This document shows positions 4,001 to 47,886 of a DNA stretch of 64,000 nucleotides, piece by piece. Source of the stretch: an uncultured Clostridia bacterium (GTDB lineage: Bacteria > Bacillota > Clostridia > Christensenellales > UBA1242); NCBI GenBank assembly GCA_934777505.1, contig CAKVNM010000001.1, positions 92,977-156,976 of the forward strand. The letters run 5' to 3'. Position numbers and translations under genes: made by a program. Each line of letters opens with the position of its first letter. The stretch's first letter is position 1. The notes below the pieces were generated by a model, which was given only the letters and a program-made list of their open reading frames with translations, was not told where the DNA came from and did not search any database.

Positions 4001-4029
4001 TTGCATTGATTTGTTAATTATGATAAAAT
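4001..4029 (+). promoter_or_regulatory. Sigma-A-type promoter of rplS
   Basis: TTGCAT, 17 nt, TGaTAAAAT (extended -10). Confidence 0.6.
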
Positions 4030-4035
4030 CAATCC

Positions 4036-4106
4036 GTGCAGTATGAGTGGTCCTCTGCAAACGGTGCAAGAACATTTACTGGCAAATAGTTTTTAAGGAG
4101 GAAAAT
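4036..4106 (+). promoter_or_regulatory. Structured 5' leader of rplS (possible L19 autoregulatory leader)
   Basis: About 70 nt of UTR with a CCGTGCAG...CTGCAAACGG helix ahead of the AGGAGG SD. An L19 leader RNA is known upstream of rplS in low-GC Gram-positives. The match to that family was not verified. Confidence 0.3.
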
Positions 4107-4448
4107 ATGAACTTAATCCAAGTTATCGAACAAGAAAACCTTAAAAAAGAAGTTCCACAATTTAATGTTGGCGATACCGTTAAAGTTTTCGTAAAAGTTG
4201 TTGAAGGCGACAAAGAAAGACTTCAAGCATACGAAGGCATTGTTATTGCAAAGAGAAACGGAAGCATTAGAGAAACATTTACAGTTCGTAGAATTTCTTA
4301 TGGAATTGGCGTAGAAAGAACATTCCCACTTCATAGTCCAAGAATTGACAGAATTGAAGTTGTTAGAAAAGGTAAAGTTAATAGAGCAAAGCTCTACTAT
4401 CTTAGAGAAAGAACTGGCAAATCTGCTCGTGTTAAAGAAGATAGATAA
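4107..4448 (+). CDS. rplS: 50S ribosomal protein L19
   Basis: [27 protein letters not shown] is typical of L19. An AGGAGG SD lies 7 nt upstream, so the ORF-track start at 4047 is rejected. Confidence 0.95.
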
Positions 4449-4453
4449 TTTTA

Positions 4454-4484
4454 AAAGCAGTTTTTATGACTGCTTTTTTTGTGC
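4454..4484 (+). terminator. Rho-independent terminator after rplS
   Basis: Stem AAAGCAGT/ACTGCTTT, then T7 and GTGC. Confidence 0.85.
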
Positions 4485-4567
4485 AAAAAATTAATTTAAA
4501 GCAAATTGGTTGTGTTTTTAAAAATTTTATAGTACCATTTTGTTAGTACAAACAGGAAGAAAAATTT

Positions 4568-4795
4568 ATGAGTAGCAAAAGTAAAAAGTTTAGCGAAAAA
4601 TATCTTAAACAAAACGGAGTTGACGCCGAAGCGGTCAAGGAAGAATATGTTGACAAAATTAGCCACTATGATATCTACAACGGCGAAACAATTACTATTG
4701 AAAGTAAAGACGGTCGTGATATTATCGACACCAAACTAACCAAAGACGAGTTTTTTGCAATTTATGGCAATCAAGAGGAGGAGTGTGATGAATAA
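4568..4795 (+). CDS. Hypothetical small acidic protein (75 aa)
   Basis: ORF with an AGGAAG SD. It overlaps the next ORF by 8 nt. I recognise no family. Confidence 0.5.
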   Translation: MSSKSKKFSEKYLKQNGVDAEAVKEEYVDKISHYDIYNGETITIESKDGRDIIDTKLTKDEFFAIYGNQEEECDE

Positions 4796-5180
4796 TCTGT
4801 ACACATATCATTTTAGCCTTCATTTATCATTCAAAAAGGATGTTGATGTTAAGCAACTTGAAAAATTGTTTGGCGTAAAAGCACACAAACTAACTTTTCT
4901 AAAAGACTCAAAGGGCGATGACGAGCATAAGAGTGCAAAGATTTGGTACAAGTCGCCTGACTATAACGAAGTTTTTGTTGACGAAAAAATCGAACAGTTC
5001 ACAACCGAAATGTTTGATAACTTTAAAGATTTAAAAAGCGTGCTAGACGAGTTTGACGGCAGGTGCAGTTTTAGTTTGATTTTTACGCAAACAAAAGAAC
5101 GACCAGTCATTGCATTGACTCGCAAAACTATCGAAATGTTTGCTAAATTGGGACTATATTTTGATGTTGATTTTGTTTAA
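4788..5180 (+). CDS. Hypothetical protein, DUF4279-like (130 aa)
   Basis: AGGAGG SD before the ATG at 4788. Size and the C-terminal pattern (...LGLYFDVDFV) recall DUF4279. This is from memory only. Confidence 0.5.
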   Translation: MNNLYTYHFSLHLSFKKDVDVKQLEKLFGVKAHKLTFLKDSKGDDEHKSAKIWYKSPDYNEVFVDEKIEQFTTEMFDNFKDLKSVLDEFDGRCSFSLIFTQTKERPVIALTRKTIEMFAKLGLYFDVDFV

Positions 5181-5185
5181 AAACT

Positions 5186-5213
5186 GACTCCTTGGTGGAG
5201 TCTTTTTTTGTGC
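5186..5213 (+). terminator. Rho-independent terminator
   Basis: Stem GACTCC/GGAGTC, then T7 and GTGC. Confidence 0.85.
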
Positions 5214-5312
5214 AAGAATTTAGTAAAATAAAAAGTTAGCACATTTGATAGTTAATTCATTTTTAAAATATTGCTTTTTATGATAAAATTAAATGTTTTA
5301 TAGGAGTGCTTT

Positions 5313-6845
5313 ATGCTTTCAAAAGTTAAAAGTTATGGCTTGATTGGATTAGAAGGTTATTTGGTGGAAGTCGAGATTGATATCAACAACGGACTGCCAG
5401 CGTTTGATATAGTGGGACTTCCAGATGCGTCCGTAAAGGAGAGTAAAGAAAGGGTTAGGAGTGCCATAAAAAACAGTGGACTTGATTATCCTATCTACAA
5501 AATCATTGCAAATCTTGCACCAGCAAACACCAAAAAAGAAGGCTCAATTTATGATTTGGCACTCGCTCTTGGCTTGCTTTCTGCAACAAGTCAAATTCCA
5601 GTTCATAGCGTTGACGATTATATTTTGCTTGGCGAACTTTCGCTTGACGGCTCGCTTAGAAAAATTGACGGACTTTTACCAATGCTCATTTCTGCACGAA
5701 ATCAAGGCTATAAAAAGTATATCATTCCAAAAGATAATGCTATGGAAGCAAGTTTTATTGACGGAATAGAAATTTACGCTTGTTCGTCATTAATCGAAGT
5801 TGTAAAATTTTTGAAAGGCGAAGAAGTAATCCAAAAATTGCAAACAAATAGTTACGAAACAATCAAGCAACAAACATCTTCTAGCAACGATTTTTGTTAT
5901 GTAAAAGGTCAAAAACAAGCAAAGCGTGCATTGGAAATTGCTGCCGCTGGCGGACATAATGTTATCATGATGGGTCCACCGGGAAGCGGAAAAAGTATGC
6001 TTGCAAAAGCGTTTCCAAGCATTTTGCCAGACATGACTTTTGACGAAGCATTGGAAGTTACAAAAATTCATAGTGTGGCAGGAAAACTTGACCACAAACA
6101 AGGCATTATTGTTAACAGACCATTCAGGTCGCCACATCACACAACAACATCAATTGCACTCACTGGTGGCGGAAACAAAGCCAAACCGGGAGAAATTAGT
6201 TTGGCTCACAATGGCGTGCTATTTTTGGACGAATTACCAGAATATCCAAGGCAGACGGTCGAAGTTTTGCGTCAACCACTCGAAGACGGAAAAATCACAG
6301 TTTCAAGGCTTAATCAAAGCATTGAATACCCAGCATCTTTCACTTTGATTGCAAGTATGAACCCATGCCCATGTGGCTATTATGGCTCAAAAACTCATCA
6401 ATGCAAGTGTTCGGCAAATCAAATTCATTCATACTTAAACAAACTTTCTGGACCCCTTATGGACAGAATTGACCTTCATGTTGAAGTTGACGGTGTGGAG
6501 TATAAGGACTTAAAAAGCGAAACGATTGAAGAGTCCAGCGAAGAAATTAAAAAAAGAGTTAACAAAGCAAGGCAAATTCAAACCGAGCGATTTAAAGGCA
6601 CAAGTATTCACAACAACGCCGAAATGACTCCTGCAATGTGTAGAAGGTATTGTGCAGTGAACAAGGAATGCGATAACTTGCTAAAAAATGCGTTTGAAAA
6701 ACTAAACTTAACGGCTCGTGCGCACGACAGAATTTTGAAAGTTGCGCGAACAATAGCCGACCTTGACGGCAGTCCAGACATCAAAACCGACCACATTATC
6801 GAAGCCATAAATTATCGAAGTCTAGACAGCAAATTTTGGATTTAA
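5313..6845 (+). CDS. comM: Mg-chelatase-like AAA+ protein ComM/YifB
   Basis: Lon-like N-terminal domain, Walker A GPPGSGKSM and LFLDELPE. 510 aa. Lies upstream of dprA. Confidence 0.9.
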   Translation: MLSKVKSYGLIGLEGYLVEVEIDINNGLPAFDIVGLPDASVKESKERVRSAIKNSGLDYPIYKIIANLAPANTKKEGSIYDLALALGLLSATSQIPVHSVDDYILLGELSLDGSLRKIDGLLPMLISARNQGYKKYIIPKDNAMEASFIDGIEIYACSSLIEVVKFLKGEEVIQKLQTNSYETIKQQTSSSNDFCYVKGQKQAKRALEIAAAGGHNVIMMGPPGSGKSMLAKAFPSILPDMTFDEALEVTKIHSVAGKLDHKQGIIVNRPFRSPHHTTTSIALTGGGNKAKPGEISLAHNGVLFLDELPEYPRQTVEVLRQPLEDGKITVSRLNQSIEYPASFTLIASMNPCPCGYYGSKTHQCKCSANQIHSYLNKLSGPLMDRIDLHVEVDGVEYKDLKSETIEESSEEIKKRVNKARQIQTERFKGTSIHNNAEMTPAMCRRYCAVNKECDNLLKNAFEKLNLTARAHDRILKVARTIADLDGSPDIKTDHIIEAINYRSLDSKFWI

Positions 6846-6857
6846 TTAGGAGAAATA

Positions 6858-7958
6858 ATGGATTATACGCTCAGCGAAAAAGCACTCGTGTGGCTAAATT
6901 TCTTTCAGTTTATGACCATAGACAAAAAGCACAATCTTTTGAGTTATTATGACGACCCAAAAGATATTTTTGACACATTCAAAAACGACTACGAGTTCTT
7001 GAAAAAGATAATCACAAAACAGCAGTTTGACGAAATGCTTGCTTGCCTTGACGAGAAGTATATCGACCACCAAATTGTTAGTTATGATGTTGAAGGAATT
7101 AGAGTTTTAACCTATTTAAGCAAGGATTATCCACAAGAATTTTTGAACTACGACAGTTATCCAATTTGTTTGTATTGCAAAGGCGATATAAGTTTGATAA
7201 AGTCGTTTTCTATCGCAGTTGTTGGAACACGAAAAATCAGTAAATATGGCAAATTTGTAACCGAAAAAATCACACGAGAATTGACTCAAAGTGGCGTGAC
7301 GATAATCAGTGGTATGGCAACGGGAGTTGACACAGTGGCTCACACCACTTGCCTTGATAACGGCGGAAAAACCATTGCGGTTTTGGGTAGTGGATTTCAT
7401 CACATTTTTCCAAAGACAAATTTTGAACTATTCAAACGAATATGCGAAAACGGACTTGTTATCACAGAATACAATCCAGAAACATTGCCACTAGCATACA
7501 ACTTTCCTGTTAGAAACAGAATTATTGCACTGATAAGCAGTGGAGTATTAATGACGGAAGCAGGACTAAAAAGTGGAGCAATTTATACAATCAACTATGG
7601 CATTGAATATGGCAAAGAAATATTTGCAGTTCCGGGGAATATTGATAGTTTTTCTTCGCAAGGATGCAATCAAGTTTTAAAAAATTGTCAGTCGGCAATA
7701 ACTACTTGTGCGGATGATATTTTGCGTGTATTTAATATTGATAACAAATCTCAAAAAGTTTACAAACAAGTACAATTTTCGGTTGATGAGCAGATTGTAA
7801 TCAATGCGATTAGTAACGATGAACTATCGTTTGACGAAATACAAGCCAAAACAAAATACGACACAAAAATCCTTGTTAGATTGTTGACAACTTTGGAACT
7901 TAGTGGAATAATAAAGAAATCTGCGGGAAATTTTTACTCAGTGATTTTTAATGATTAA
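6858..7958 (+). CDS. dprA: DNA processing protein DprA
   Basis: Rossmann core VVGTRKIS...SGMATGVD...AVLGSG. Lies upstream of topA, as in Firmicutes. Confidence 0.9.
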   Translation: MDYTLSEKALVWLNFFQFMTIDKKHNLLSYYDDPKDIFDTFKNDYEFLKKIITKQQFDEMLACLDEKYIDHQIVSYDVEGIRVLTYLSKDYPQEFLNYDSYPICLYCKGDISLIKSFSIAVVGTRKISKYGKFVTEKITRELTQSGVTIISGMATGVDTVAHTTCLDNGGKTIAVLGSGFHHIFPKTNFELFKRICENGLVITEYNPETLPLAYNFPVRNRIIALISSGVLMTEAGLKSGAIYTINYGIEYGKEIFAVPGNIDSFSSQGCNQVLKNCQSAITTCADDILRVFNIDNKSQKVYKQVQFSVDEQIVINAISNDELSFDEIQAKTKYDTKILVRLLTTLELSGIIKKSAGNFYSVIFND

Positions 7959-25543: not shown

Positions 25544-26668
25544 ATGATTAGTAAAGATTTTTTTCAAGCATTGGAAGACTTTGAAACAGAAAGAAAAATA
25601 AAAAAAGAAGTATTTATCGAAGCACTCGAAACAGCACTCACAAGTGCCTATAAAAAGAATTATGGCGAAGCTAAAAGTGCAGTGGTAAAACTCAACCCAG
25701 AAAAACATACAATCAAAATATATAGTTACAAAACTGTTGTTGACGAAGTTGTTGACCCAGACAAAGAAATTTCACTAGAAGACGCAAAGCAAATCAAGTC
25801 AACTTACAAAATCGGTTCTTTGGTTGAAACCGAAGAAATCCCAAAGGATTTTGGTAGAATTGCAGCACAGACAGCAAAACAAGTTGTTATGCAAAAACTA
25901 AGAGAAGCCGAAAAAGAAGTAACAATGAGCGAGATTGCTGAAAAGGAAGACCAACTCATCACAACAATCGTTAAGAGAATTGACGGCAAAAATGTGTTTG
26001 TTGAAATTGGCGCAACCGAAGCAGTGCTTAGCGAAAGAGACCAAATTCCCGGTGAAAAATATCATATTGGCGACAGAATTAAGGTGTATGTAAAGCCAAT
26101 TCCAGAAGATTTCCAAGGCTCACTTGTACAAGTTTCAAGAGCCCATGTGAACTTTGTAAAACGCCTTTTTGAACTTGAAGTTCCAGAAATCGAAAATGGC
26201 GAAATCGAAATCAAATCAATTTCGAGAGAAGCTGGTTCAAGAACAAAAATCGCTGTTGCAAGCGACAATCCAAACCTTGATGTTATCGGTGCGTGCGTTG
26301 GTAACAAGGGCATGAGAATTAATAGCATTGTTAACGAACTTAACGGCGAAAAAATCGATATCATTGAATACAGCGAAGACCCACTTGTATTTATTGAAAG
26401 AGCGCTTAGCCCAGCAAAAGTTATCAAAGTTGAAATGATTGAAGAAGGTCAAGCAAGAGCAATCGTTCCAGACGATGTTCTATCTCTTGCAATTGGCAAG
26501 CAAGGACAAAATGTTAAACTTGCAGCAAGATTGACTCACATCAAGATTGATGTTAAGCCACTTTCAAAAGTAGAAAACGAACAAGTTGAAAACAAGCCAG
26601 TTCACACTGACGAGTTCCAAATTGACGAAAATCTTAGTCTTGACGATTTGTTTAAGGACGAAGAATAA
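25544..26668 (+). CDS. nusA: Transcription termination/antitermination factor NusA
   Basis: S1 and two KH domains (GACVGNKGMRINSI). 374 aa. Confidence 0.97.
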   Translation: MISKDFFQALEDFETERKIKKEVFIEALETALTSAYKKNYGEAKSAVVKLNPEKHTIKIYSYKTVVDEVVDPDKEISLEDAKQIKSTYKIGSLVETEEIPKDFGRIAAQTAKQVVMQKLREAEKEVTMSEIAEKEDQLITTIVKRIDGKNVFVEIGATEAVLSERDQIPGEKYHIGDRIKVYVKPIPEDFQGSLVQVSRAHVNFVKRLFELEVPEIENGEIEIKSISREAGSRTKIAVASDNPNLDVIGACVGNKGMRINSIVNELNGEKIDIIEYSEDPLVFIERALSPAKVIKVEMIEEGQARAIVPDDVLSLAIGKQGQNVKLAARLTHIKIDVKPLSKVENEQVENKPVHTDEFQIDENLSLDDLFKDEE

Positions 26669-26913
26669 TGGCAGAAAGAACTTGCATAGTATGCAAAAAA
26701 AAGTTTGAGCAACCAGATTTGATCAGAATTGTTTTTAATAACGGTCAAATCTCAGTTCAAAATGGCAAGAAAATAGACGGCAGGGGTGCTTATGTTTGCA
26801 AGAACACCGCTTGCCATGAAAATTTGCTAAAACAAAGAGCATTAAACAGAACTTTTAAATGTAACATAAGTTTAGAAGAATATGAAAAATTGTTAAATAT
26901 TTTGAAAAATTAG
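26668..26913 (+). CDS. ylxR: YlxR/RnpM (DUF448) RNA-binding protein
   Basis: RTCIVCKKK...DGRGAYVC motif. Overlaps the nusA stop (TAATG). Confidence 0.85.
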   Translation: MAERTCIVCKKKFEQPDLIRIVFNNGQISVQNGKKIDGRGAYVCKNTACHENLLKQRALNRTFKCNISLEEYEKLLNILKN

Positions 26914-26939
26914 TCATAGGCTAATAAAAGGAGAAGTTT

Positions 26940-29405
26940 GTGGTAGAAAAAACTGAACAAAAAGAAAATAAACAATCAAGTTTGGAAAATTTGAAAAAAC
27001 TAGCATCACTTTGCTCGTCAAATAGTGTGTCGGTTTATGTTGGACAAATTCACAAAGCCAAGCAAATTTTGTCAAACCTTAGCAAGCAAGTAGACACAAA
27101 ACTTGGTGTTTTTGCAAAGAAAGTTGAACCCGCTACAACAACTGTTCAACCTTCGCCAGTTGTAGAACCAAAAGTTAGTGCCAGCGTGCCAGCGAATAAT
27201 AATGTTAGTCACAAGTCAGGTGATGGTTTTTCTACGACTCGACCTTCTAGTTTTAGCCACAGTGGCAAGACTTTTGACAAGTCAAAGCAACCATTTGATA
27301 GAAATAAAAAACCATTTGACAGAAACGGCAAGCCACAATTTAATGGCACAAGACCTTTTGGTCAAAAACCATTTGGTGCTAACGGACAAAAGCCTTTTAA
27401 CAAGCCTTTTGTAAAGAAAAACACAGAGCCAGAAATTGATTTGAACTCTATTGCAAGAGAGCAAAATCGTAACTTTGGCAATAAAAAGAAAACTCACGAT
27501 GCACCACAAGAACACAAAACCATGAACAAAAAGGCACAAATGAGATTTAATGTTGCCGACATGGAAGACGATGACGAAGAAAAACTTGCTAGAAGATACA
27601 AGTCAAGAAGAAAAGCAGAAGTTCAAGTTGAACAACAAATCGCAAAAATCGACCACGCAGTTATCACAAGTGAAAACATGACTGTTAAAGATTTTAGCGA
27701 AAAGATTGGAAAACCAGTTGCCGAAATTGTTAAAAAACTTTTCATTTTGGGTATTATGGCAACAATCAACAGCAAACTTGACTATGATACTGCCGAACTT
27801 ATCGCTAGCGAATTTGGAATTACTCTTGAAAACAACATTCAACAATCGCAAGAGCAATTACTTGCTGAGTCTTTAAAAGCGACCGAACAAGAAGACGAAA
27901 AATTCTTGGTAAAACGCCCACCAGTTGTTACTGTTATGGGTCATGTTGACCACGGAAAAACATCACTTCTTGACGCTATTAGAAAAACAAATGTTGTTGG
28001 CGGAGAAGCAGGTGGAATCACTCAAAGTATCGGTGCTTACACTGTTAAATTCAACAACGAAAACATCACATTTATTGATACACCGGGACACGCTGCCTTC
28101 ACAGCAATGCGTGCTCGTGGTGCGCAAATCACAGATATTGCAATCTTGGTAGTTGCAGCGGACGATGGCGTTATGCCTCAAACTGTTGAAGCAATCAACC
28201 ATATCAAAGCCGCAAATGTTCCAATGATTGTTGCAATCAACAAAATGGATAAGCCAGAAGCAAACCCACAAAGAGTTATGCAAGAACTTGCTGACCATGA
28301 TGTATTGGCAGAAGATTGGGGCGGAGATACTATCTGCGTGCCAATTGCAGCAAAGAAGGGCGAAGGAATTGACAAACTTCTTGAAATGGTTATTCTTCTT
28401 GCCGAAATGCTTGACTTAAAGGCAAATCCACATCGTAGTGCAGTTGGTACTATTATCGAAGCAAAACTTGACAAAGGCAAAGGACCAGTTGCTTCCGTTC
28501 TTGTTCAAAACGGAACACTCAAAATTGGTGATACAGTTGTTTCGGGTACTGCTTTTGGTAGAATTAGAGCAATGCTTGATGAACACGGCAACAATGTTAA
28601 AAAAGCCGAACCATCAACACCTGTTTCAATCTTAGGTCTTGACGAAGTTCCAAGTGCTGGCGACAAATTGACTGTTGTTGACGAGAAAACATCAAAACTT
28701 CTAATTCAGGAAAGAAAGAACAAAATCAAGCAAGACAAAGTTAACGCAACAAGTGCTGTTAGTCTTGAAGAATTTATGAACAAGGCAAAAGAAGGCACAC
28801 TCAAAAACCTTAATGTTATCATCAAAGCCGATGTTCAAGGTTCTGCCGAAGCCTTAAAACAAAGCATTTCCAAAATCAAGAACGAAGAAGTCAAAATTAC
28901 TTGCGTTCATGTTGGAGTCGGTGCAATCAGCGAAAGCGATGTTGTTCTAGCAAAAGCATCAAAGGCAATTATTATTGGCTTTAACACACGACCAGAACCA
29001 AAGGCAAAACAAATTGCCGAACACGACAAAATTGAAATCAAGACATACAATGTTATCTACGAATGCATTGAAGAACTTGAAGCCACAATCAACGGTATGA
29101 TGGCTCCAAAATACAGAGAAATTATCTCTGGCCATGCAGAAGTTAGAAAAGTGTTTAACTTGTCATCACAAGGTGTTATTGCTGGTTCTTATGTTCAAGA
29201 CGGCAAGATTGCAAGAAATAACTTTGCAAGAGTTATTAGAAACGGCAAGGTTGTGGTAGACACTCAAATTATCGGTCTAAAAATCCAAAAAGACGAAGTT
29301 AAGGAAGTTAACAAAACATTTGAGTGCGGTATCAAACTTGCAAACTTTGATGATGTTAAGGAACTTGATATTATTGAAGCCTACACAAAGGAAAGAATTA
29401 ATTAA
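26940..29405 (+). CDS. infB: Translation initiation factor IF-2
   Basis: GTG start after an AAAGGAG SD. G domain [25 protein letters not shown]. The N-terminal region is low-complexity with repeated KPF(D/G) units. Confidence 0.97.
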
Positions 29406-38188: not shown

Positions 38189-38572
38189 ATGGGATTAGAA
38201 CTAAATCAAGTGGCTTCCAAAAACAACAAGGGCAAAGTTTCTTGCAACAGAGATATTTTGCTTTCTATTGTTAGTCTTGCAACAAAAGAGATTACAGGTG
38301 TTTCTTGTCTTTGTGCAAATTTTGGAAACGGACTAAAGAAATTATTTTCAAACAACTATACTCAGGGAGTAAAAATAACAGAATCTGGCGACTCTATCAT
38401 GGTTGATATCTACATCAACATTTTGTTTGGCTATTCTGTTAGCGATGTTGCTTTTAGGGTTCAAGAAAATGTAAAAAATGGACTATCTGCCATGGTTGAC
38501 ATAAAGATTGATAGCATCAATGTTCATGTGCTTGGCGTGGACTTTAACAAAGAAGGAGAATCAGCAATCTAA
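38189..38572 (+). CDS. Asp23/Gls24 family envelope stress protein (YqhY-like)
   Basis: 127 aa of Asp23 family pattern. Lies upstream of nusB, as in Bacillus. Confidence 0.85.
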
Positions 38573-38967
38573 TGAGCCGTATTAAAGCAAGAGAAAGTTG
38601 TTTTAAACTCATATTTGAATATGAGTTTTTAAAACAAAAAAATGAACTAACGCTTGATGAATTTTTGTCGAGCAAAGATATTGAACAAGAAGACGCGAAG
38701 TTCATTAACGAAGTCTATGACGGAATTTTGTCAAAGGAAGACGAGTTAAACGAACTTATCGCAAGCAAACTAAAAGGCTACACTTTGGAAAGAATTTTCA
38801 AGGTTGACCTTGCCATACTAAAACTTGCAATTTATGAAATCAAGTATTTGAACGAAAATCCTGCTGTGGTGATTAACGAAGCAGTGGAACTTGCTAAAAA
38901 GTACTCGACAGACAATAGTTACAAGTTTATCAACGGCGTTTTGGCAAATATTGTAAAGGGAGAATAA
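38572..38967 (+). CDS. nusB: Transcription antitermination factor NusB
   Basis: [18 protein letters not shown]-terminus. 131 aa. Confidence 0.9.
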
Positions 38968-40086
38968 ATGGACGCACTTTCGGTTACAACAATTAGTTCG
39001 TACTTAAAGCAAATTTTGGATAACGACCAGTTGCTTTATAGAGTTAAAGTGTTTGGCGAAGTGTCCAGTTTTAATATCTCAAACAGAGTGGTATACTTTG
39101 GTCTTAAAGACGAAAATGCTCTATTAAATTGCGTTTCGTTTTATCCACAAGATTATGACAGCATAAAGATTGGCGACAAAGTTGTTGTTCAAGGCACGCC
39201 AAACTACTACATTAAGGGCGGAAGGCTATCTTTTAATGCTGATAAAATCGAACTTTTTGGAGAAGGCGAACTCTACAAAAACTTTTTGCTTTTAAAGCAA
39301 AAGTTGGAGAAAGAAGGGTTATTTGACCTTGAACGAAAAAAACCGTTTCCAGCAAAGATTAGCAAAATAGGAATTGTTACAAGCGAAACTGGCGCAGTTA
39401 TTCAAGATATTATCAATGTTTCAACAAGGCGAGATAGTCAAATAAACTTGGTGCTATTTCCAGTGAAAGTGCAAGGTGCACTTGCCGAAAACTCTATTGT
39501 TAGGGGCGTTAATTACTTTAATAACAGTGATGTTGATGCCATAATTGTTGCTCGTGGCGGTGGAAGTGAAGAAGATTTGATGCCGTTTAACACCGAAGCG
39601 GTGGCTAGAAGTGTTGCAGACTGCTCAAAGTTTGTTGTGAGTGCAGTAGGTCATGAAACAAACTATACTTTGGTTGATTTTGTTGCAGACCTTAGAGCCC
39701 CAACGCCGTCAGCGGCTGCGGAATTGCTTGTAAAAGAAAAAAAGTCATATATTCAAGATTTTGACAGACTATTTTCCAAACTTAATTACTTGATTGAGTC
39801 CAAACTAGTCAAGGTAGAAAACAGCGTGTTATCATACAAAAATATGCTAGATAATTTAACTCAATCAAGACTGATGAAAGAGCAGAGCAAACTACAACTA
39901 CTTGCTCAGGCGTTAAATCACAAAAACCCCTTGGAAATTTTAAGCCAAGGCTATTCCAAACTTGAAAAACAGGGCAAAAGAGTGGAGTCAATTAAAGATG
40001 TTATGATTGGGGACGAGATTGTTTGCAACCTAAAAGACGGGCAACTTGTATCGAGTGTTAAGGAGATAATAAAACATGAACTATGA
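38968..40086 (+). CDS. xseA: Exodeoxyribonuclease VII large subunit
   Basis: N-terminal OB fold and the ARGGGSEEDL motif. Confidence 0.95.
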   Translation: MDALSVTTISSYLKQILDNDQLLYRVKVFGEVSSFNISNRVVYFGLKDENALLNCVSFYPQDYDSIKIGDKVVVQGTPNYYIKGGRLSFNADKIELFGEGELYKNFLLLKQKLEKEGLFDLERKKPFPAKISKIGIVTSETGAVIQDIINVSTRRDSQINLVLFPVKVQGALAENSIVRGVNYFNNSDVDAIIVARGGGSEEDLMPFNTEAVARSVADCSKFVVSAVGHETNYTLVDFVADLRAPTPSAAAELLVKEKKSYIQDFDRLFSKLNYLIESKLVKVENSVLSYKNMLDNLTQSRLMKEQSKLQLLAQALNHKNPLEILSQGYSKLEKQGKRVESIKDVMIGDEIVCNLKDGQLVSSVKEIIKHEL

Positions 40087-40279
40087 TGAAAAAATAAAAC
40101 AGTTAGAGCAAATAGCAAGCGAACTTGAAAAAGATATTCCGCTAACCGAAGCACTCGAAAAATATAACAAAGGCGTTGCTTTGATTAAGGAATGTGTTGA
40201 AAGTTTGGACAGTGTTAAAGGCTCTATTACAAAGGTTAAACAAGACCTAGACAGTTACATAGAAGAAAAAATGAGATAA
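40076..40279 (+). CDS. xseB: Exodeoxyribonuclease VII small subunit
   Basis: 67-aa helical protein overlapping xseA. Confidence 0.9.
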   Translation: MNYDEKIKQLEQIASELEKDIPLTEALEKYNKGVALIKECVESLDSVKGSITKVKQDLDSYIEEKMR

Positions 40280-40291
40280 GGAAGACATAAA

Positions 40292-41728
40292 ATGGAAAAG
40301 AAAAATTTTGTAGAACAAATTGCAGATATCCACACAGATTTGCCACAGTGGTATACTGATGTTATTTTAAAAGCAGACCTTTGCGACTATGGTCCAGTAA
40401 AGGGAACAATGGTTATCAAACCTTATGGTTTTGCAATTTGGGAAAATATTAGAAATACGATGGATAGCGAGTTTAAAAAAGTAGGCGTCAAAAATGCTTA
40501 CTTCCCAATGCTTATTCCAGAAAGTTTCTTGAAAAAAGAAGCCGACCATGTTGAAGGCTTTGCACCAGAAGTTGCTGTTGTAACCTATGCCGGCGGACAA
40601 GAACTAGCCGAAAAACTTATCGTTCGTCCAACAAGCGAAACAATCATTTGCGAAATGTATGCAAAGTGGATTAAGTCATACAGGGATTTGCCAATGGTTA
40701 TGAATCAATGGTGTAATGTTGTTCGTTGGGAAAAAACAACAAGACCATTCCTTAGAACCAGCGAATTTTTGTGGCAGGAAGGTCACACTGTTCAAGCATC
40801 AGCATTGGACGCAAAAAACGATGCTTTCAAAATGCTTGAAATCTACAAAAAAGTGTGCAGAGAATTGCTTGCAATTCCAATGCTAAGTGGCAAAAAGAGT
40901 GACAGAGAAAAGTTTGCAGGTGCAAATTCAACTTATGGTATAGAAGCCGTTATGAAAGATGGAAAATGCTTGCAAAGTGGCACAACTCACGACCTTGGAC
41001 AAAACTTTGCCAAGGCTGCTGGAATAAAATTCCTTAACAAAAACGGCGAATGGGAATATGGTTATTCAACATCTTGGGGAATATCAACAAGACTTATTGG
41101 TGCGCTTATTATGACCCACGGAGATGAAAGGGGAATTAAACTCCCACCACGAGTTGCTCCAATTCAAGTTATCATTATTCCAGTTGCTCAACACAAAGAT
41201 GGCGTTTTGGAAAACGCTAACAAAATCAAAGAAAGATTGCTTGGTGCAAACATTAGGGTGGAACTTGACGACACAGATAGTTCTGCTGGCTGGAAATTTA
41301 GCGAATATGAAATGAAAGGTGTTCCACTTCGTTTGGAAGTTGGTCCAAGAGATATTGAAAACAAGGTTGTTACTTTGGTTAGACGAGATACTCATGAAAA
41401 AATTACTGTTAACATGGATGAACTCGAAACAAAAATTCCACAGTTACTTGAAGATATACAAGAAAATATGTACAATCAAGCAAAGGATTATGTTGACCAC
41501 TGCTCAGTTGATGTTAACAATATGCAAGAACTTGTTGACGCAATCAATAACCAAAAGGTTGCTATGGGCTATCACTGCTCAAACATTGAATGTGAAGAAC
41601 AAATAAAAGCAGAAACTGGAATTCAAACCAGAGTTATTATCAGCGAATGTGACGAAAACGATGACCATAAGTGTATTCACTGTGGCAAAAAAGCAAAGTA
41701 CAAAATCTATTTTGCTAAACAATATTAA
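40292..41728 (+). CDS. proS: Prolyl-tRNA synthetase, archaeal/eukaryote-like short type
   Basis: 478 aa with class II motifs, no bacterial INS editing domain, and a Cys-rich C-terminal domain. Confidence 0.95.
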   Translation: MEKKNFVEQIADIHTDLPQWYTDVILKADLCDYGPVKGTMVIKPYGFAIWENIRNTMDSEFKKVGVKNAYFPMLIPESFLKKEADHVEGFAPEVAVVTYAGGQELAEKLIVRPTSETIICEMYAKWIKSYRDLPMVMNQWCNVVRWEKTTRPFLRTSEFLWQEGHTVQASALDAKNDAFKMLEIYKKVCRELLAIPMLSGKKSDREKFAGANSTYGIEAVMKDGKCLQSGTTHDLGQNFAKAAGIKFLNKNGEWEYGYSTSWGISTRLIGALIMTHGDERGIKLPPRVAPIQVIIIPVAQHKDGVLENANKIKERLLGANIRVELDDTDSSAGWKFSEYEMKGVPLRLEVGPRDIENKVVTLVRRDTHEKITVNMDELETKIPQLLEDIQENMYNQAKDYVDHCSVDVNNMQELVDAINNQKVAMGYHCSNIECEEQIKAETGIQTRVIISECDENDDHKCIHCGKKAKYKIYFAKQY

Positions 41729-41788
41729 TATAAGAAGAGTGGGGAACTTATCTCACTTTTTTTGAATATTTTGATAAAAATAATTCTA

Positions 41789-41817
41789 TTGATTTTTGTA
41801 AAATAATATGATATAAT
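41789..41817 (+). promoter_or_regulatory. Sigma-A-type promoter upstream of the large RNA
   Basis: TTGATT, 17 nt, TGaTATAAT. Confidence 0.6.
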
Positions 41818-41823
41818 GTAAGC

Positions 41824-42400
41824 ACACTAAAAAAAGGAGCAGTATTCTAGTCGAAAAACTATGCTAGACGGTGATGAAACAAAGCACCATCGGGCACATC
41901 TGTGAAGTTTCTTGTGTTTGCCTTGGTTGCCCAAATCGGGGTTTATGCTGGAAGTTAAGATTCATGGGCTAGTTATAACGGCATATAGCGTTTAGACCCA
42001 TCTATCGTGGAGACCTAAAAGGTTGTTTAGTACAAGATTGTTGTAGCAGACAACTAATTAGGCGTGAACCTGCATTGCGGATTACAAAATGTCTGTGTGC
42101 AGAGTAGCCTGCTTTGAGTGAAACAAGCGGATTAAACATCAAAACCTACAAGTTTGTGGCCACAAATTTAAGGTTATCGGTTTATGAAACTTCTATTGCA
42201 AAAAAAGATAATATCATAGTAATTCGCCAAGGAAATCTTCTAGACTGTTTAATTTTAGGGATTATAGTGCAATCTAAGTGGCGATCTAGTGCTTTACATA
42301 TAGGCTTGGCTTTGAACGGAAACGGCTCGTTCGGTGACGGCGAGTAGTCAAGCGGGAAATCCTACTAGACCTAAGTTGCAAGGTTTATCTAAAATTTTTC
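41824..42400 (+). ncRNA. ole: Large structured non-coding RNA, candidate OLE RNA
   Basis: About 580 nt with no credible ORF. Visibly more GC-rich than its flanks, with many local helices (GTTGT..ACAAC, TTTGTGGCCACAAA, CTCG..CGAG, ATGGGCTA..TAGACCCAT). It has its own promoter and is followed by a 4-TM protein in the xseB...argR-recN neighbourhood described for OLE. The ends are approximate. Confidence 0.6.
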
Positions 42401-42444
42401 CTTTGAATAGGTGTGTTTTTTAAACTAAAAAATTTGAGGAGATT

Positions 42445-43071
42445 ATGAAAGACCCATTACCGAGTAACGAACTCGAAACAGAAGAATTAGAAAAAGAGCA
42501 GACTGCTCAGCAAAAGAAAAAACAAAAACCAAAGAAAAAGCAAAAGATTAGTTTTAAGTGGCCACTAGTTGTGTTAGTGCTAACTTTTACACTTAGTTTT
42601 GCATTTGGATTTGGTTCGCAATTTATTTTGAGCGGGGCGGGCATAGTGCTTTCCGTTGTGCTACTTGTTTTCTTTTTGCTTCTTGCAATGATAACCGATA
42701 TGATTGGTGTGGCTGCCACTTCGGTGGAGATTGAACCATTTAATGCAATGAGCGCAAAAAAGGTCAAGGGTGCAAAGGAGTGTATTTCGCTCATCAAAAA
42801 CGCAGACAAGGTTTCTAGTATATTTAATGATATCATTGGCGATATTTGTGGAATTTTGTCAGGTACAATCGGTGCAACGCTCAGTGTGCAAATTGTAAAT
42901 GGTCAGTTTTCTGGCATAAAAGAAGTTTTAATTGCATCACTAGTGAGTGCAGGGATTGCAGCGTTAACGGTGTTTTTGAAAGCAGTAGGCAAAAAGATTG
43001 CAATTAGCAAAGCACATAGCATTATATTTGCGTTTGGAAAATTTATAAGTTTCTTTAAGTTTGGAAAATAG
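42445..43071 (+). CDS. oapA: Four-TM membrane protein, candidate OLE-associated protein OapA
   Basis: 208 aa with a K/E-rich N-terminus and 4 predicted TM helices that carry Asp residues (ITDMIGVAA, IGDICGI). Lies immediately downstream of the RNA. Confidence 0.55.
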   Translation: MKDPLPSNELETEELEKEQTAQQKKKQKPKKKQKISFKWPLVVLVLTFTLSFAFGFGSQFILSGAGIVLSVVLLVFFLLLAMITDMIGVAATSVEIEPFNAMSAKKVKGAKECISLIKNADKVSSIFNDIIGDICGILSGTIGATLSVQIVNGQFSGIKEVLIASLVSAGIAALTVFLKAVGKKIAISKAHSIIFAFGKFISFFKFGK

Positions 43072-43076
43072 ATTTT

Positions 43077-43103
43077 AAGCCACTTAATTTGAGTGGCTTT
43101 TTT
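43077..43103 (+). terminator. Rho-independent terminator after the oapA-like gene
   Basis: Stem AGCCACT/AGTGGCT, then T6. Confidence 0.85.
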
Positions 43104-43140
43104 GTTGCTTTAAAATGGAGTGGTGTGCGGAGTGGTTTTA

Positions 43141-43179
43141 AAAAAATGGGTGACTTTTAAACTGAGTAACCCATTTTTT
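43141..43179. terminator. Second, bidirectional-type terminator hairpin
   Basis: A6-AATGGGT...ACCCATT-T6. Confidence 0.65.
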
Positions 43180-43295
43180 CATGCTTGCATAATATTATTT
43201 TATGGGGCATTTGATTGCCTTTTTGTATGCAATGCATATAAATTCAAGCCAAAATAAATATAAATTCATAACTATTTATATTTATGAAAAATTTG

Positions 43296-43311
43296 TTGCA
43301 TAAATATGCAA
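43296..43311. promoter_or_regulatory. ARG-box-like operator TTGCATAAATATGCAA
   Basis: TGCAT-N4-ATGCA has the same 5-4-5 geometry as the ARG box TGAAT-N4-ATTCA. It abuts the -35 of the argR promoter. Confidence 0.55.
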
Positions 43312-43318
43312 AAAGTCC

Positions 43319-43347
43319 TTGCATAATTATAAAATGTATTGTATAAT
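43319..43347 (+). promoter_or_regulatory. Sigma-A-type promoter of argR
   Basis: TTGCAT, 17 nt, TATAAT. Confidence 0.6.
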
Positions 43348-43361
43348 TATTTCGCAATCGA

Positions 43362-43389
43362 TGAATAAATATGAATGCATATTTATGCA
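43362..43389. promoter_or_regulatory. Tandem ARG boxes TGAATAAATATGAA + TGCATATTTATGCA in the argR leader
   Basis: Two contiguous 14-bp boxes downstream of the -10. The arrangement is typical of ArgR/AhrC operators. Confidence 0.55.
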
Positions 43390-43432
43390 AAGTGGCTACA
43401 ATGCCCGAAAATACGGAGGATTTTAAGATTTT

Positions 43433-43882
43433 ATGGCAAGGACAGCAAGACAAAATAAGATACTAGAAATCATTAAAAGTCAAGAAATTGAAACACAAGA
43501 CGAACTTGTTAATGCCTTGCGTGCTTTGAATTTTGATATCACCCAAGCAACAATTTCAAGAGATATCAAAGAACTTGGACTCATCAAAATCATGAGCGAC
43601 AGCAAAAAATACAAATATGCCTATGTCGACTCGTCCGAACAACAGATGTCCACAAAATATCTTGGAATTTTCAAAGAAAGCATTATCAGTATCAAGCCAA
43701 TACTCAATCAAGTTATTATCAAGACTCTAAAAGGCGTTTCAAGTGCAATCAGCAGTTTGATTGATAAAATGGGAATCAAACAAGTTCTTGGTTCGGTTTA
43801 TGGGGACGAAACTGTTTTGGTTATTTGCGAAAACGGTGACGATGCAAACTTTGTTAGCGAAAAAATTGGAGAGATGATTTAA
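43433..43882 (+). CDS. argR: Arginine repressor ArgR/AhrC
   Basis: RQNKILEIIKSQEIETQDELV...TQATISRDIKELGL wHTH and a C-terminal oligomerisation domain. Confidence 0.93.
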   Translation: MARTARQNKILEIIKSQEIETQDELVNALRALNFDITQATISRDIKELGLIKIMSDSKKYKYAYVDSSEQQMSTKYLGIFKESIISIKPILNQVIIKTLKGVSSAISSLIDKMGIKQVLGSVYGDETVLVICENGDDANFVSEKIGEMI

Positions 43883-43955: not shown

Positions 43956-45641
43956 ATGTTAAACACTTTAAAGATAAAAAACATTGCATTAATCGAAAAT
44001 TTAACTATTGAGTTTGATAAAGGACTCAATGTTTTGACGGGCGAAACTGGTGCAGGTAAATCAATTATTATTGATTCGCTTAACTTTGTTTTGGGTGCTA
44101 GAACCGATAGAACGCTAATTCGCAGTGGCGAGAGCAACGCCCGAGTTGACGCAGTTTTCACAGTTGACAACAACACTGCGGTTGAAGAATTTTTTAAGGC
44201 TAACGATTTTGATTATGATGGTGAAATTTTGATTTCAAGAAGTATGAACACAGACGGAAAATCAAACATCTGGCTCAACGGCAACCCTATAACCGCTGGA
44301 ATGTTGAAAGAATTAACTTCCAACTTGGTTGATATCTATGGTCAACAAGAGCAAGTTAGTCTGCTTTCAAACAGCAAGCAACTGCAATTATTAGACAACT
44401 TTTGCGGTAAGGATTTAAAGAAACTTCAAGCAGAGTATTTGGAAAAATATAGCCAAATCAAAAAAATCAACAAGTCACTTCAAGAACTTGGTGGAGATAG
44501 CCAAATGGTGGAGCGAGAAAAAGACTATCTTTCTTTTGTTATTAACGAAATCGAAAGCCAAAATCTTAGCGAAGACGAAGAAAACGATTTAAAAGAGAAA
44601 GTCCATTTATTTTCCAATATTGAAAAAATTATGAGCGGAGCAAATATGACTGCAAACGCACTAAGCAGTGCCGAGCAGTATATAAATCAGGCAATTCCCA
44701 GCATTTCAACAATCACTGCGTTTGATAATAGTATGGAAAACTTATATGAACGATTAAAGTCGCAAAAAATTGAACTTGACGACATAACAGAAACAATCAA
44801 CGAATATCTCGAAAATTTGGATTTTAGCGAAACAGAGTTTGACAAGTTGGACGCAAGGCTCGATACTTACAAGAGTCTTCAAAAGAAATATGGCGGAACA
44901 ACCGAGAATGTACTACAATTCCTTAATGAATCCAAGACTAAACTTGATAGGTTAGTCAACAGCGAGCAGTATATTTTAAAGTTGCAGGACGAAAAAGTCA
45001 GCGCTCTAAAATCTGCACTTGATTTAGCAAAACAAATCAATAATATAAGACAAAAAACAGCGCAAGAATTGCAAGAAAAACTAAAACAAAATTTGGTATG
45101 TCTTGGTATGCCAAGTGCAACAATATATTTTGATTTTAACAACATGGACTACACTGAAGACAATCTAGCTTCAACTGGTGTTGGTGGTGTTCAAATAATG
45201 TTTAGCGCCAACTTGGGACAGCAGGCAAAATTGCTCAGCAAGGTTGCCAGTGGCGGAGAAATGTCTAGAGTTATGCTAGCTATCAAGTCGGTTTTGGCGG
45301 AAAGCGACAACATATCAACCATGATTTTTGATGAAATCGACAGCGGAATTAGCGGTCAAATTGCACAAGCAGTCAGTGAAAAAATTGCTCAAATTTCAAG
45401 ACATCATCAGGTGCTTGTAATAACCCACACAATTCAAATTGCTTCCATGGCAGACACTCACTTTAAAGTTAGAAAATTTGAACAAGACGGAAAAACCGTC
45501 AGCTATGTTGAGCAACTCGACGAAAATAGTAGAGTTGACGAAATTGCTAGATTTATCTCAGCGGACGCAAGTTCAACACTTGCAAAACAAAGTGCAGTAG
45601 AGATAATTAAAAAACAAGACTTGTTCAAGCAAAAACTTTAA
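43956..45641 (+). CDS. recN: DNA repair protein RecN
   Basis: MLNTLKIKNIALIE..., Walker A GETGAGKS and the SMC-like signature SGGEMSR. Confidence 0.95.
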   Translation: MLNTLKIKNIALIENLTIEFDKGLNVLTGETGAGKSIIIDSLNFVLGARTDRTLIRSGESNARVDAVFTVDNNTAVEEFFKANDFDYDGEILISRSMNTDGKSNIWLNGNPITAGMLKELTSNLVDIYGQQEQVSLLSNSKQLQLLDNFCGKDLKKLQAEYLEKYSQIKKINKSLQELGGDSQMVEREKDYLSFVINEIESQNLSEDEENDLKEKVHLFSNIEKIMSGANMTANALSSAEQYINQAIPSISTITAFDNSMENLYERLKSQKIELDDITETINEYLENLDFSETEFDKLDARLDTYKSLQKKYGGTTENVLQFLNESKTKLDRLVNSEQYILKLQDEKVSALKSALDLAKQINNIRQKTAQELQEKLKQNLVCLGMPSATIYFDFNNMDYTEDNLASTGVGGVQIMFSANLGQQAKLLSKVASGGEMSRVMLAIKSVLAESDNISTMIFDEIDSGISGQIAQAVSEKIAQISRHHQVLVITHTIQIASMADTHFKVRKFEQDGKTVSYVEQLDENSRVDEIARFISADASSTLAKQSAVEIIKKQDLFKQKL

Positions 45642-47006: not shown

Positions 47007-47057
47007 TCATAATCATATTTTGCAAAATTATTTTTGTAAAAAATATTGTAAAAATGA

Positions 47058-47086
47058 TTGTTTTTTCCAAAATCAAGTGATATACT
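47058..47086 (+). promoter_or_regulatory. Candidate sigma-A-type promoter of spo0A
   Basis: TTGTTT, 17 nt, TGaTATACT. Confidence 0.45.
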
Positions 47087-47112
47087 ATCAATACATTGCG
47101 GAGGAATCACTA

Positions 47113-47886
47113 ATGATAAAAAGGGAATTAACTGCGTTTTTATATTCAAATAAAAACATTGATTTGATGTGTAGACTTAACAAAAGTTGCCATAAATTAA
47201 GCATGAATATGGTCACTTGCATCAACTTTGTTGAACTAACCATCAAAGTGCACAAACTAAAACCACAGGTTATTTTTGTGGACCTAGAAACTATAGACTT
47301 CAACAGTCATAGACTACAACTTGCACTTGAAAGTAAGGAGTTTAAAAATATTAAAATTATCGTTATCGGCACGGAAGCACAACGAGCATACATTGAAGCA
47401 TTAGGTTATAGCCAAGTTGGGTTTACAACCATAGCACAAGTCGAAAACTATGTTTTAAGTTGCAAGGAAGTTATCGACATTAATATACTCAACACTTTAA
47501 ACAATCAAGCACAGCAAGACGATATGAAGAATACCGTTTCTAACTTACTGTTTGAACTTGGATTTTCGCCAAAGCATTCTGGATTTAGTTATCTTAAAGA
47601 TATCATTAACAACATTTTGCAAAATGGGGGAGTTGTGTCGTCACTTGTCAACGAGCAATACCCATATATTGCAGTCAAATTCAAAACTTCGCCAAGCAAT
47701 ATCGAAAGAAATATTAGAAACGCAATCAGCCTAGCATACAAAACCTACAACCATAAAAATTGGGGCGAGATTTTTCCAAGCAATAGCATTTACAAGGACA
47801 TGAAAAGACCTTCTAACAGAGAATTTATTTGTATGTGCGTAGAAGCCCTTTTGAAAACAAAGCAGTCATTTTCCGCTAACGGTTAA
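47113..47886 (+). CDS. spo0A: Spo0A-like sporulation regulator with an atypical receiver domain
   Basis: The C-terminal domain aligns with Spo0A_C (PKHSGFSYLKDII...SNIERNIRNAISLAY...PSNREFICMC). GGAGGA SD before the ATG at 47113. Synteny is argR-recN-spoIVB-spo0A. Confidence 0.8.
   Translation: MIKRELTAFLYSNKNIDLMCRLNKSCHKLSMNMVTCINFVELTIKVHKLKPQVIFVDLETIDFNSHRLQLALESKEFKNIKIIVIGTEAQRAYIEALGYSQVGFTTIAQVENYVLSCKEVIDINILNTLNNQAQQDDMKNTVSNLLFELGFSPKHSGFSYLKDIINNILQNGGVVSSLVNEQYPYIAVKFKTSPSNIERNIRNAISLAYKTYNHKNWGEIFPSNSIYKDMKRPSNREFICMCVEALLKTKQSFSANG

Follow-up and report, generated by a model that had tools for sequence, protein, structure and literature searches.

The locus described here is almost certainly an ole-oapA operon. 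It lies in the window, that is, the whole 64-kb stretch of DNA that was analysed. OLE hosts are Bacillota, typically anaerobic or extremophilic, and the OLE gene normally lies directly upstream of oapA. The initial annotation of this DNA had read the region as an OLE ribonucleoprotein (RNP) locus. This reading is supported, since it held in every analysis that was directed against it, namely the covariance model, covariation, OapA homology and ORF conservation. The flagged region is bounded by the stop codon of proS (41728) and a 208-codon ORF (42445-43071). Its features, and those of the neighbouring genes, are as follows.

38572-38967, plus strand: nusB (Pfam, NCBIfam)
38968-40086, plus strand: xseA (Pfam, NCBIfam)
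40076-40279, plus strand: xseB (Pfam, NCBIfam)
40292-41728, plus strand: proS (Pfam, NCBIfam)
41731-41764, plus strand: terminator-like hairpin with a T run, closing the proS transcript (sequence scan)
41789-41817, plus strand: sigma-70-type promoter for ole-oapA (10 of 12 consensus matches)
41818-42419, plus strand: OLE RNA gene, Rfam RF01071 (covariance model, 370.6 bits, E 2.6e-105)
41840-41850, plus strand: 5' conserved strand CAGUAUUCUAG, in a long-range helix with 42240-42247 (CUAGACUG)
42114-42347, plus strand: 77-aa ORF within the RNA, a chance ORF and no gene (unconserved)
42291-42303, plus strand: stub GCUUUACAUAUAG in place of the P13 hairpin (9 P13 model positions deleted)
42325-42345, plus strand: P14.1 hairpin, kept, with GUGA tetraloop at 42334-42337 (Rfam projection, fold)
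42436-42441, plus strand: Shine-Dalgarno sequence GAGGAG for oapA (sequence)
42445-43071, plus strand: oapA, 208-aa OLE-associated membrane protein (BLASTP, AF2, motif conservation)
43077-43099, plus strand: strong hairpin resembling an intrinsic terminator, with a T run, at the end of the ole-oapA unit (terminator scan)
43433-43882, plus strand: argR (Pfam, NCBIfam)
43956-45641, plus strand: recN (Pfam, NCBIfam)

Identity and structure of the OLE RNA

The whole window was scanned with all 4,227 Rfam families at their gathering thresholds, and OLE was the only family found. The match is untruncated (model positions 1-616), and its score is far above the gathering score of 50. No RNase P RNA, tmRNA, SRP RNA or rRNA was detected anywhere in the 64 kb, and the earlier impression that signatures of the first three were not visible is therefore confirmed. 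Likewise, the claim of a non-coding stretch of about 600 nt agrees with the full-length match and with the lack of conservation of the only ORF inside it. This copy is a genuine and ordinary OLE, which any standard RNA-family scan detects.

When the Rfam structure was projected on the window RNA, both partners were present in 151 of the 159 model pairs, and 133 of these 151 (88%) were canonical. All of the near-invariant OLE blocks are found in it: GCAGUAUUCUAGUC, the GCCCA loop, GGCAU, GUGGAGACC and GUAGCC; GGAAA..CUAGACUG, GGAUUAUAGUG and CUAAGUGG; and GGGAAAUCC, ACCUAAG and GCAAGGUUUA. The conserved nucleotides on either side of P5, which would form the K-turn that is the OapC site, are also present (UGAAG near 41903 and GUUAAG near 41953) and are nearly invariant among the aligned homologues. 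The RNA of the same species was recovered in four independent metagenome contigs with 0-5 substitutions per 602 nt.

For the comparative analysis, a homologue set was collected from the DNA around relatives of the downstream protein. It comprises 86 loci, of which 2 come from species-representative genomes, 4 are contigs of the same species and 80 are metagenome loci. The OLE genes were located with nhmmer and a subset was verified by Rfam. OLE was detectable in 75 of the 86 loci and, among those with long enough flanking DNA, it is nearly always directly upstream of the OapA homologue; the Rfam check verified OLE in all six loci to which it was applied.

Alignment A2 was made with MAFFT from 47 distinct full-length OLEs and was not fitted to the Rfam structure, so that it provides a structure-independent view of covariation. 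Under the Rfam structure, 82.3% of its cells pair, compared to 39-47% in slid controls; 124 of the 151 pairs change on both sides, compared to 68-90; and the covariation score is 0.47, compared to 0.10-0.16. These values were attained in none of 500 shuffles. The weak helices are 6, 11, 12 and 15, all within length-variable regions in which the MAFFT alignment is unreliable. A covariation-supported structure, which had been named as a check on the OLE reading, is thus found. The minimum free energy (MFE) of the whole RNA has a z-score of -2.9 against shuffles, while the 3' domain folded as a single sequence reaches only -0.9. The 3' domain would escape identification by thermodynamic stability alone.

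CTAG elements, a long-range helix and base composition

Recurrent CTAG(A/T)C elements had been pointed out in this stretch, and they are indeed enriched. The plus strand of the 602-nt RNA holds 4 sites against about 0.3 expected from the density in the window (30 sites in 64 kb, both strands). Two of the copies, at 41847 and 42240, are partners in the covarying long-range helix between 41840-41850 and 42240-42247, which is left unpaired in the Rfam model. Over the 47 OLEs of A2, the pair 41846:42244 occurs as U-A in 39 sequences, C-G in 6 and U-G in 2; further covariation is seen at 41842:42245 (G-C/U-G) and 41840:42247 (C-G/U-A). The copy at 42365 forms the 3' side of P12.2, and the copy at 41864 is found in the window species alone.

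The description of the RNA as richer in G+C than its surroundings stands in part. Its G+C content of about 0.40 exceeds that of the AT-rich intergenic flanks (0.27-0.31) and is equal to that of the proS coding sequence (0.39-0.41).

The membrane protein OapA

Judged by its sequence and its structural model, the 208-aa protein encoded downstream is OapA. When it was compared by BLASTP to the OapA of the cryo-EM paper, 175 aa aligned at 36% identity (E 8e-26), and the aligned part takes in TM1-TM4 as well as the basic loop and DxxxD. The reference sequence was taken from Supplementary Table 4 of PMC12286853 as machine-read text, in which minor errors are possible. A comparison with OapA had been suggested at the outset as a check. 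The protein also bears all the published OapA hallmarks, which are four TM helices, DxxxD, a basic loop and a sub-threshold similarity to CNNM domains with a CorB-like fold (PMC11332333).

These hallmarks can be located on the protein. Kyte-Doolittle analysis gives four hydrophobic segments, and the AF2 model (pLDDT 78) has four long TM helices at residues 38-64, 67-93, 120-154 and 158-188, preceded by a Lys-rich, disordered N-terminus (residues 1-37). Four helices with intramembrane Asp residues had been claimed, and in the model D85 lies inside TM2 and D129 and D133 inside TM3. The latter two make up the DxxxD motif (D129-I-I-G-D133), and both are also kept in the literature OapA; all three residues are invariant in an alignment of 22 homologues. 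The loop between TM2 and TM3 (residues 94-124) is basic, with K105, K106, K108, K111, K118 and K122, and its motif AM[AS][AS][RK]K[VI][RK]G[AS] is conserved. In the literature this loop is placed on the cytoplasmic face.

The fold points in the same direction. The top six Foldseek matches in the PDB are all CNNM domains of CorB/CorC (7M1T, 7M1U, 7CFF, 7CFG), with a probability of 1.00 and query TM-scores of 0.39-0.47, and 7M1U was reported as the top fold match of the OapA of H. halodurans (PMC11332333). At the level of sequence the PDB gave no match at E <= 1, and the fold search alone was informative. Pfam and NCBIfam contain no OapA model, and the protein gave just sub-threshold OPT and CNNM matches there; the CNNM model PF01595 reached E 0.0024, below the cut-off, and Fernando & Breaker described the behaviour of OapA with this model alike (PMC11332333). 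The DxxxD motif is what distinguishes OapA from CNNM domains (PMC11332333). About 2,850 public homologues of the 208-aa protein exist, nearly all of them unnamed and entered as 'hypothetical protein'. A single-protein search of species-representative genomes, a set that does not include the window species, returned two loci, of which the best OapA match is 67% identical (L001).

Loss of the P13 hairpin

The P13 hairpin of the window RNA has been replaced by a 13-nt stub that is unpaired in the MFE fold and has neither the GNRA tetraloop nor the bulge. In H. halodurans, the GNRA tetraloop of P13 together with its one-nucleotide bulge is the primary high-affinity OapB site, and P14.1 is a weak secondary one (PMC7936274). 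In the nearest other species, represented by L001, P13 is complete and has a GGCGAC loop, and the loss in the window lineage is therefore recent. A small hairpin after CUAGACUGU (model positions 424-435) is also missing from the window RNA, as it is from many relatives. Many gut OLEs in A2 have no P13 at all, and loss of the P13 tip has been published for the 'variant 1' OLEs of gut clades, which are largely without OapB and OapC (PMC11332333). P13 is thus typical of full-length OLEs but not universal among them, and since such published variants also lack it, its absence does not bar the RNA from OLE membership.

P13 is indispensable for the binding of OapB in H. halodurans, so that the particle may be of a different composition here. 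With the docking hairpin gone, the particle is predicted to be free of OapB or to use the weaker GNRA site of P14.1 only. By analogy with H. halodurans, OapB would thus be either absent from the host or bound at P14.1 alone. Within the 64-kb window, a domain scan of the ten small ORFs found no OapB-like or OapC-like domain, and tblastn with the literature OapC and RpsU sequences gave no match. We propose tentatively, as a possibility that is less likely than not, that a full-length OLE with P2-P9 at consensus length, in a host bearing sporulation genes, has lost its OapB-docking P13 since the split from L001. If the genome also proves to be without oapB, it would hold a natural and recent OapB-independent full-length OLE particle; and if the proposal is true, the window lineage and L001 form a sister pair that could reveal the actual contribution of OapB.

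The same losses could be read as the first erosion of a decaying, non-functional OLE relic. P13 is an unpaired stub here, whereas the sister lineage L001 retains it, and the score of 370.6 bits is under the 393 bits of L001. However, 88% of the model pairs that are present remain canonical, every conserved sequence block is intact, and so are the promoter, the Shine-Dalgarno sequence and the reading frame of oapA. The RNA is also nearly identical in four independent samples, and P13 loss is recurrent, both among the gut OLEs of A2 and in published gut-clade variants that look functional (PMC11332333). A decaying relic is therefore very unlikely.

The transcription unit

The promoter read by eye in the initial annotation, TTGATT-17-TGaTATAAT, turned out to be the top promoter-like site in a scan of 3.3 kb (40200-43500). 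It consists of a -35 element TTGATT (41789-41794), a 17-nt spacer and an extended -10 element TGaTATAAT (41809-41817) with the TG at -15. Transcription of ole is predicted to start near 41824, and the mature OLE RNA probably extends from about 41824 to about 42410. The Rfam match ends at 42419, 25 nt before the start of oapA at 42445. The terminator scan found no terminator-like site between the OLE RNA and the 208-aa ORF, just as had been noted, and hairpins flank the unit on either side (41731-41764 and 43077-43099); a second hairpin follows at 43141-43179.

This arrangement, in which the RNA is co-oriented with oapA at a distance of 25 nt with no terminator between them, would also suit a mere cis-acting 5' leader of the oapA mRNA, riboswitch-like, with no stable RNA acting in trans. 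Against this, the RNA is a full-length OLE, and in the species studied the class is abundant and stable and forms an RNP with OapA, OapB and OapC (PMC9723947, PMC12265935). Moreover, in related loci the RNA can be as far as 2 kb away from oapA, or can follow it, and a leader is therefore a poor fit. We regard the leader as highly improbable compared to an OLE RNA encoded in an operon with oapA.

There is next to no chance that the RNA-family match is incidental and that the region encodes a small protein by way of its 77-codon ORF, which is uninterrupted here and is annotated by some gene callers in two loci (L004, L006): it starts with TTG, has no Shine-Dalgarno sequence in the 20 nt upstream and is intact in only 2 of the 47 aligned OLEs, both from the window species, while in the other 45, the nearest relative included, stop codons interrupt its span, in most of them along with frame-shifting length changes. 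The coding hypothesis is as good as ruled out by these stops together with the covarying helices, which account for the same bases, and the early judgement that the stretch has no convincing ORF, and that this one is without a Shine-Dalgarno sequence, was correct.

Gene neighbourhood and host

The synteny claimed for the locus, nusB-xseA-xseB-proS-RNA-4TM-argR-recN, was reproduced by Pfam and NCBIfam. The full upstream order is spoIIIAA-AH, asp23, nusB, xseA, xseB, proS, ole, oapA, and downstream oapA is followed by argR, recN, spoIVB, a spo0A-like gene, a deoB-like gene and PNP. This neighbourhood is the ancestral block of the Bacillota that usually hosts ole-oapA. The window indeed has the compact form of it, without ispA and dxs, as had been stated. 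The compact order xseB-ole-oapA-argR-recN without ispA/dxs also occurs in L007, L012 and L015, and L024 and L052 show it too, though their xseB signal is weaker. Since it recurs in several gut-derived loci, it is not unusual. The gene proS is directly upstream of ole in L001 as well, and a proS-like match lies just upstream of OLE in L028, L035 and L053. The idea that the compact gene order, or proS next to ole, is unique to this locus was rejected because of this recurrence.

The host probably belongs to a low-G+C (35.7%) uncultured gut-type Clostridia lineage that is represented by metagenomes only. Its sporulation genes in the window are the spoIIIA operon, spoIVB and the spo0A-like gene.

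A putative mini-OLE and other related loci

Outside the window, the search for relatives of OapA also led to a shorter candidate RNA gene, which we call mini-OLE. It was found on seven termite-gut contigs as a gene of 230-280 nt that follows an intact oapA homologue at a distance of 60-260 nt. The product of this homologue has conserved the Asp in TM2 as well as the basic loop, and it carries a DVLGD motif. Mini-OLE retains a TATAAT box and is closed by a P1 stem of 13 bp in which compensatory changes are seen; it also has the invariant GUGCAGUAUCCUAGU strand, the GGAAAACUUCUAGGCUG element and the whole 3' domain including the GNRA-capped P13 and P14.1. It is entirely without P2-P9. RNAalifold gave 77 pairs, 23 of them with compensatory changes, and 97.8% of the cells pair compared to 35-47% when slid, where the structure was derived from the same six sequences. 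The long-range helix described above is also predicted from the mini-OLE alignment. The genes around one mini-OLE (L045) gave no informative Pfam match.

The Rfam scores of mini-OLE are 104-126 bits, which is under the cut-off of 235 bits in the published census (PMC11332333). No description of it was found in the searchable literature, and it is apparently previously undescribed. The part that it lacks is the dimer region of the cryo-EM structures, P3-P9.3, including the P3 stem that is proposed to span the membrane. If real, mini-OLE would define a minimal OLE and would bear on models with the P3 stem as the membrane-spanning element, and it may matter more than the window copy. Two further loci depart from the usual arrangement: L046 has a full-length OLE in inverted order, oapA and then ole, and L011, which has no OLE in the vicinity, encodes a fusion of an OapA-like domain with a type I phosphodiesterase/nucleotide pyrophosphatase domain.

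Proposed function and significance

We propose that the strong promoter at 41789-41817 would drive the synthesis of the OLE RNA of about 600 nt and then, with no terminator between them, of the oapA mRNA. By analogy with the work on H. halodurans and clostridia (PMC12265935, PMC12286853, PMC11332333), the OLE RNA would accumulate as a stable non-coding RNA and dimerise via its 5' domain P3-P9.3, and OapA dimers would bind palindromic CUAG-type sites near P2 and P4a. The binding of OapA would tether the RNA to the cell membrane or insert it there; OapA is, by the same analogy, a probable divalent-cation transporter under RNA regulation, and the particle would help the cell to cope with alcohols, cold, excess Mg2+ and poor carbon sources.

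Among bacterial non-coding RNAs without an established biochemical function, OLE is one of the largest and best conserved; a recent proposal is that the RNA spans the membrane. The window copy adds little to this by itself, as the standard Rfam model finds it and its partner bears every published OapA hallmark. Its value is modest: it comes from an uncultured low-G+C gut-type Clostridia lineage that is not represented in the species-representative genomes searched, and it shows that this lineage has lost the OapB site while its RNA is otherwise of full length.

Comparison with known systems

When compared to the OLE RNP of H. halodurans (Halalkalibacterium/Bacillus), the window copy belongs to the same RF01071 family, with the same overall P1-P15 architecture, the same conserved blocks and oapA immediately 3'. 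The OapA proteins share the four TM helices, DxxxD, the basic loop and the CNNM-like fold, and the nusB-xseA-xseB ... argR-recN neighbourhood is the same. The differences are in the host, which is a metagenome-only, sporulation-gene-bearing organism of Clostridia type and no alkaliphile; in the RNA, with its P13 stub and without the small hairpin after CUAGACUGU; and in the gene order, which has proS between xseB and ole and is without ispA and dxs.

The clostridial OLEs solved by cryo-EM, from C. acetobutylicum (PMC12286853) and C. botulinum (PMC12265935), have the dimer-forming 5' domain P3-P9.3, which is at consensus length here too. They differ from the window copy in species and sequence, and the 3' domain of the latter is without P13.

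With the 'variant 1' OLEs of gut clades such as TANB77 (Fernando & Breaker 2024, PMC11332333), the window RNA shares a gut-metagenome origin and the absence of the OapB nucleotides at the P13 tip. Its score falls inside the 310-390 bit band of those authors, but their cut-offs refer to a different covariance model. Unlike the variants, the window RNA has P7, P8 and P9 at consensus length and not shortened, where the stem names were assigned to Rfam positions by inference; over model positions 199-385 it has the Rfam consensus length with just small insertions. A shortened P7 is seen in many other gut loci of A2.

Finally, the membrane domain of the CNNM Mg2+ transporters MpfA/CorB/CorC is the best fold match of OapA (7M1T, 7M1U, 7CFF), and the PF01595 match to it is weak. 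OapA has four TM helices compared to three in these transporters, and it carries DxxxD and is without the CBS/CorC domains, for which the OLE RNA has been proposed as a stand-in (PMC11332333).

A long-range helix and a candidate shortened form of OLE RNA

In the window, nucleotides 41840-41850 pair with 42240-42247, forming a long-range helix in which the conserved 5' strand (CAG..UCUAG) is joined to a CUAGA.CUG element. Both strands are left unpaired in the Rfam consensus structure (RF01071). In our alignment of 47 distinct full-length OLE RNAs the helix covaries: position 41846:42244 appears as U-A, C-G or U-G, and position 41842:42245 as G-C or U-G. In OLE models published more recently, this helix probably corresponds to 'P2'.

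An equivalent helix is also kept in a much shorter candidate RNA of about 230-280 nt, which we call mini-OLE. It was found on termite-gut metagenome contigs, where an intact homologue of oapA lies 60-260 nt upstream of it, at the following loci.

Mini-OLE copies (locus and coordinates)
L036:2188-2460, mini-OLE
L039:1262-1500, mini-OLE
L045:6618-6846, mini-OLE
L050:1112-1350, mini-OLE
L054:843-1095, mini-OLE
L081:752-1032, mini-OLE
L014:1151-1290, mini-OLE, partial, cut by the contig end

The mini-OLE retains the TATAAT box, the invariant 5' strand GUGCAGUAUCCUAGU and the GGAAAACUUCUAGGCUG element, and its P1 stem of 13 bp carries compensatory changes. The 3' domain is complete (P12-P15), with a GNRA loop on each of P13 and P14.1, and none of the stems P2-P9 is present. 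The absent region is the part of OLE that forms the dimer in the cryo-EM structure, and it includes the P4a site for OapA, the P5 k-turn and the P3 stem that has been proposed to span the membrane. The Rfam scores of the mini-OLEs are 104-126 bits, below the cut-off of 235 bits used in the published census (PMC11332333). No description of such an RNA was found in the searchable literature.

Arrangement of ole and oapA

The usual order of ole followed by oapA is also reversed at L046, a termite-gut contig (Ga0131853), where the oapA homologue (5980-6606) comes first and a full-length OLE (7037-7622, 299 bits) follows it after about 430 nt. The OapA of this locus is close to the OapA homologues found beside mini-OLEs. 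At four other loci (L021, L022, L023 and L049) the OLE is about 2.1 kb from the oapA homologue, compared with the usual distance of less than 250 nt.

Neighbouring genes in the window

The spacer between oapA and argR is AT-rich (27% G+C) and, together with a spo0A-like gene and the ylxR-infB junction, contributes the following features.

26668-29405, infB directly after ylxR
43141-43179, second terminator-like hairpin, in the oapA-argR spacer
43222-43389, at least five palindromes of the TGCATAAATAT / ATATTTATGCA type, just upstream of argR
47020-47886 (+), spo0A-like gene

The palindromes resemble ARG boxes, which suggests that ArgR may regulate its own gene; a link between ArgR and OLE is mentioned in the literature as unpublished. 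At its C-terminus, the spo0A-like product clearly carries the DNA-binding domain of Spo0A (PF08769, E 3e-24; PDB 1LQ1, 1FC3). A search of its N-terminal ~170 residues detected no receiver domain, although matches up to E <= 10 were admitted, and there is no evident acidic pair of the kind usually seen close to the N-terminus. The real start codon of the gene is probably M32. In Bacillus, the gene between ylxR and infB is ylxQ, a paralogue of OapC/YbxF, and this L7Ae-like gene is absent from that position in the window.

Comparison with known OLE systems

An OLE (L002:5418-5996, 349 bits) with oapA was found on a contig whose MAG is labelled Muribaculaceae (Bacteroidota). The RNA has no P8 region and in that respect resembles the published 'variant 2'. 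This assignment probably reflects misbinning or mislabelling, and the same kind of error is suspected in the literature for its 24 non-Bacillota OLE hits (PMC11332333).

At L011, positions 4013-5791 encode a fusion protein of 592 aa, with an OapA-like four-TM domain retaining DxxxD at the N-terminus and a type I phosphodiesterase/nucleotide pyrophosphatase domain (PF01663, E 1.5e-16) at the C-terminus. OLE was detected neither in the 4 kb upstream of the fusion gene nor elsewhere on the contig. By analogy with the proposal made for MpfA, the fusion may be a protein-only counterpart.
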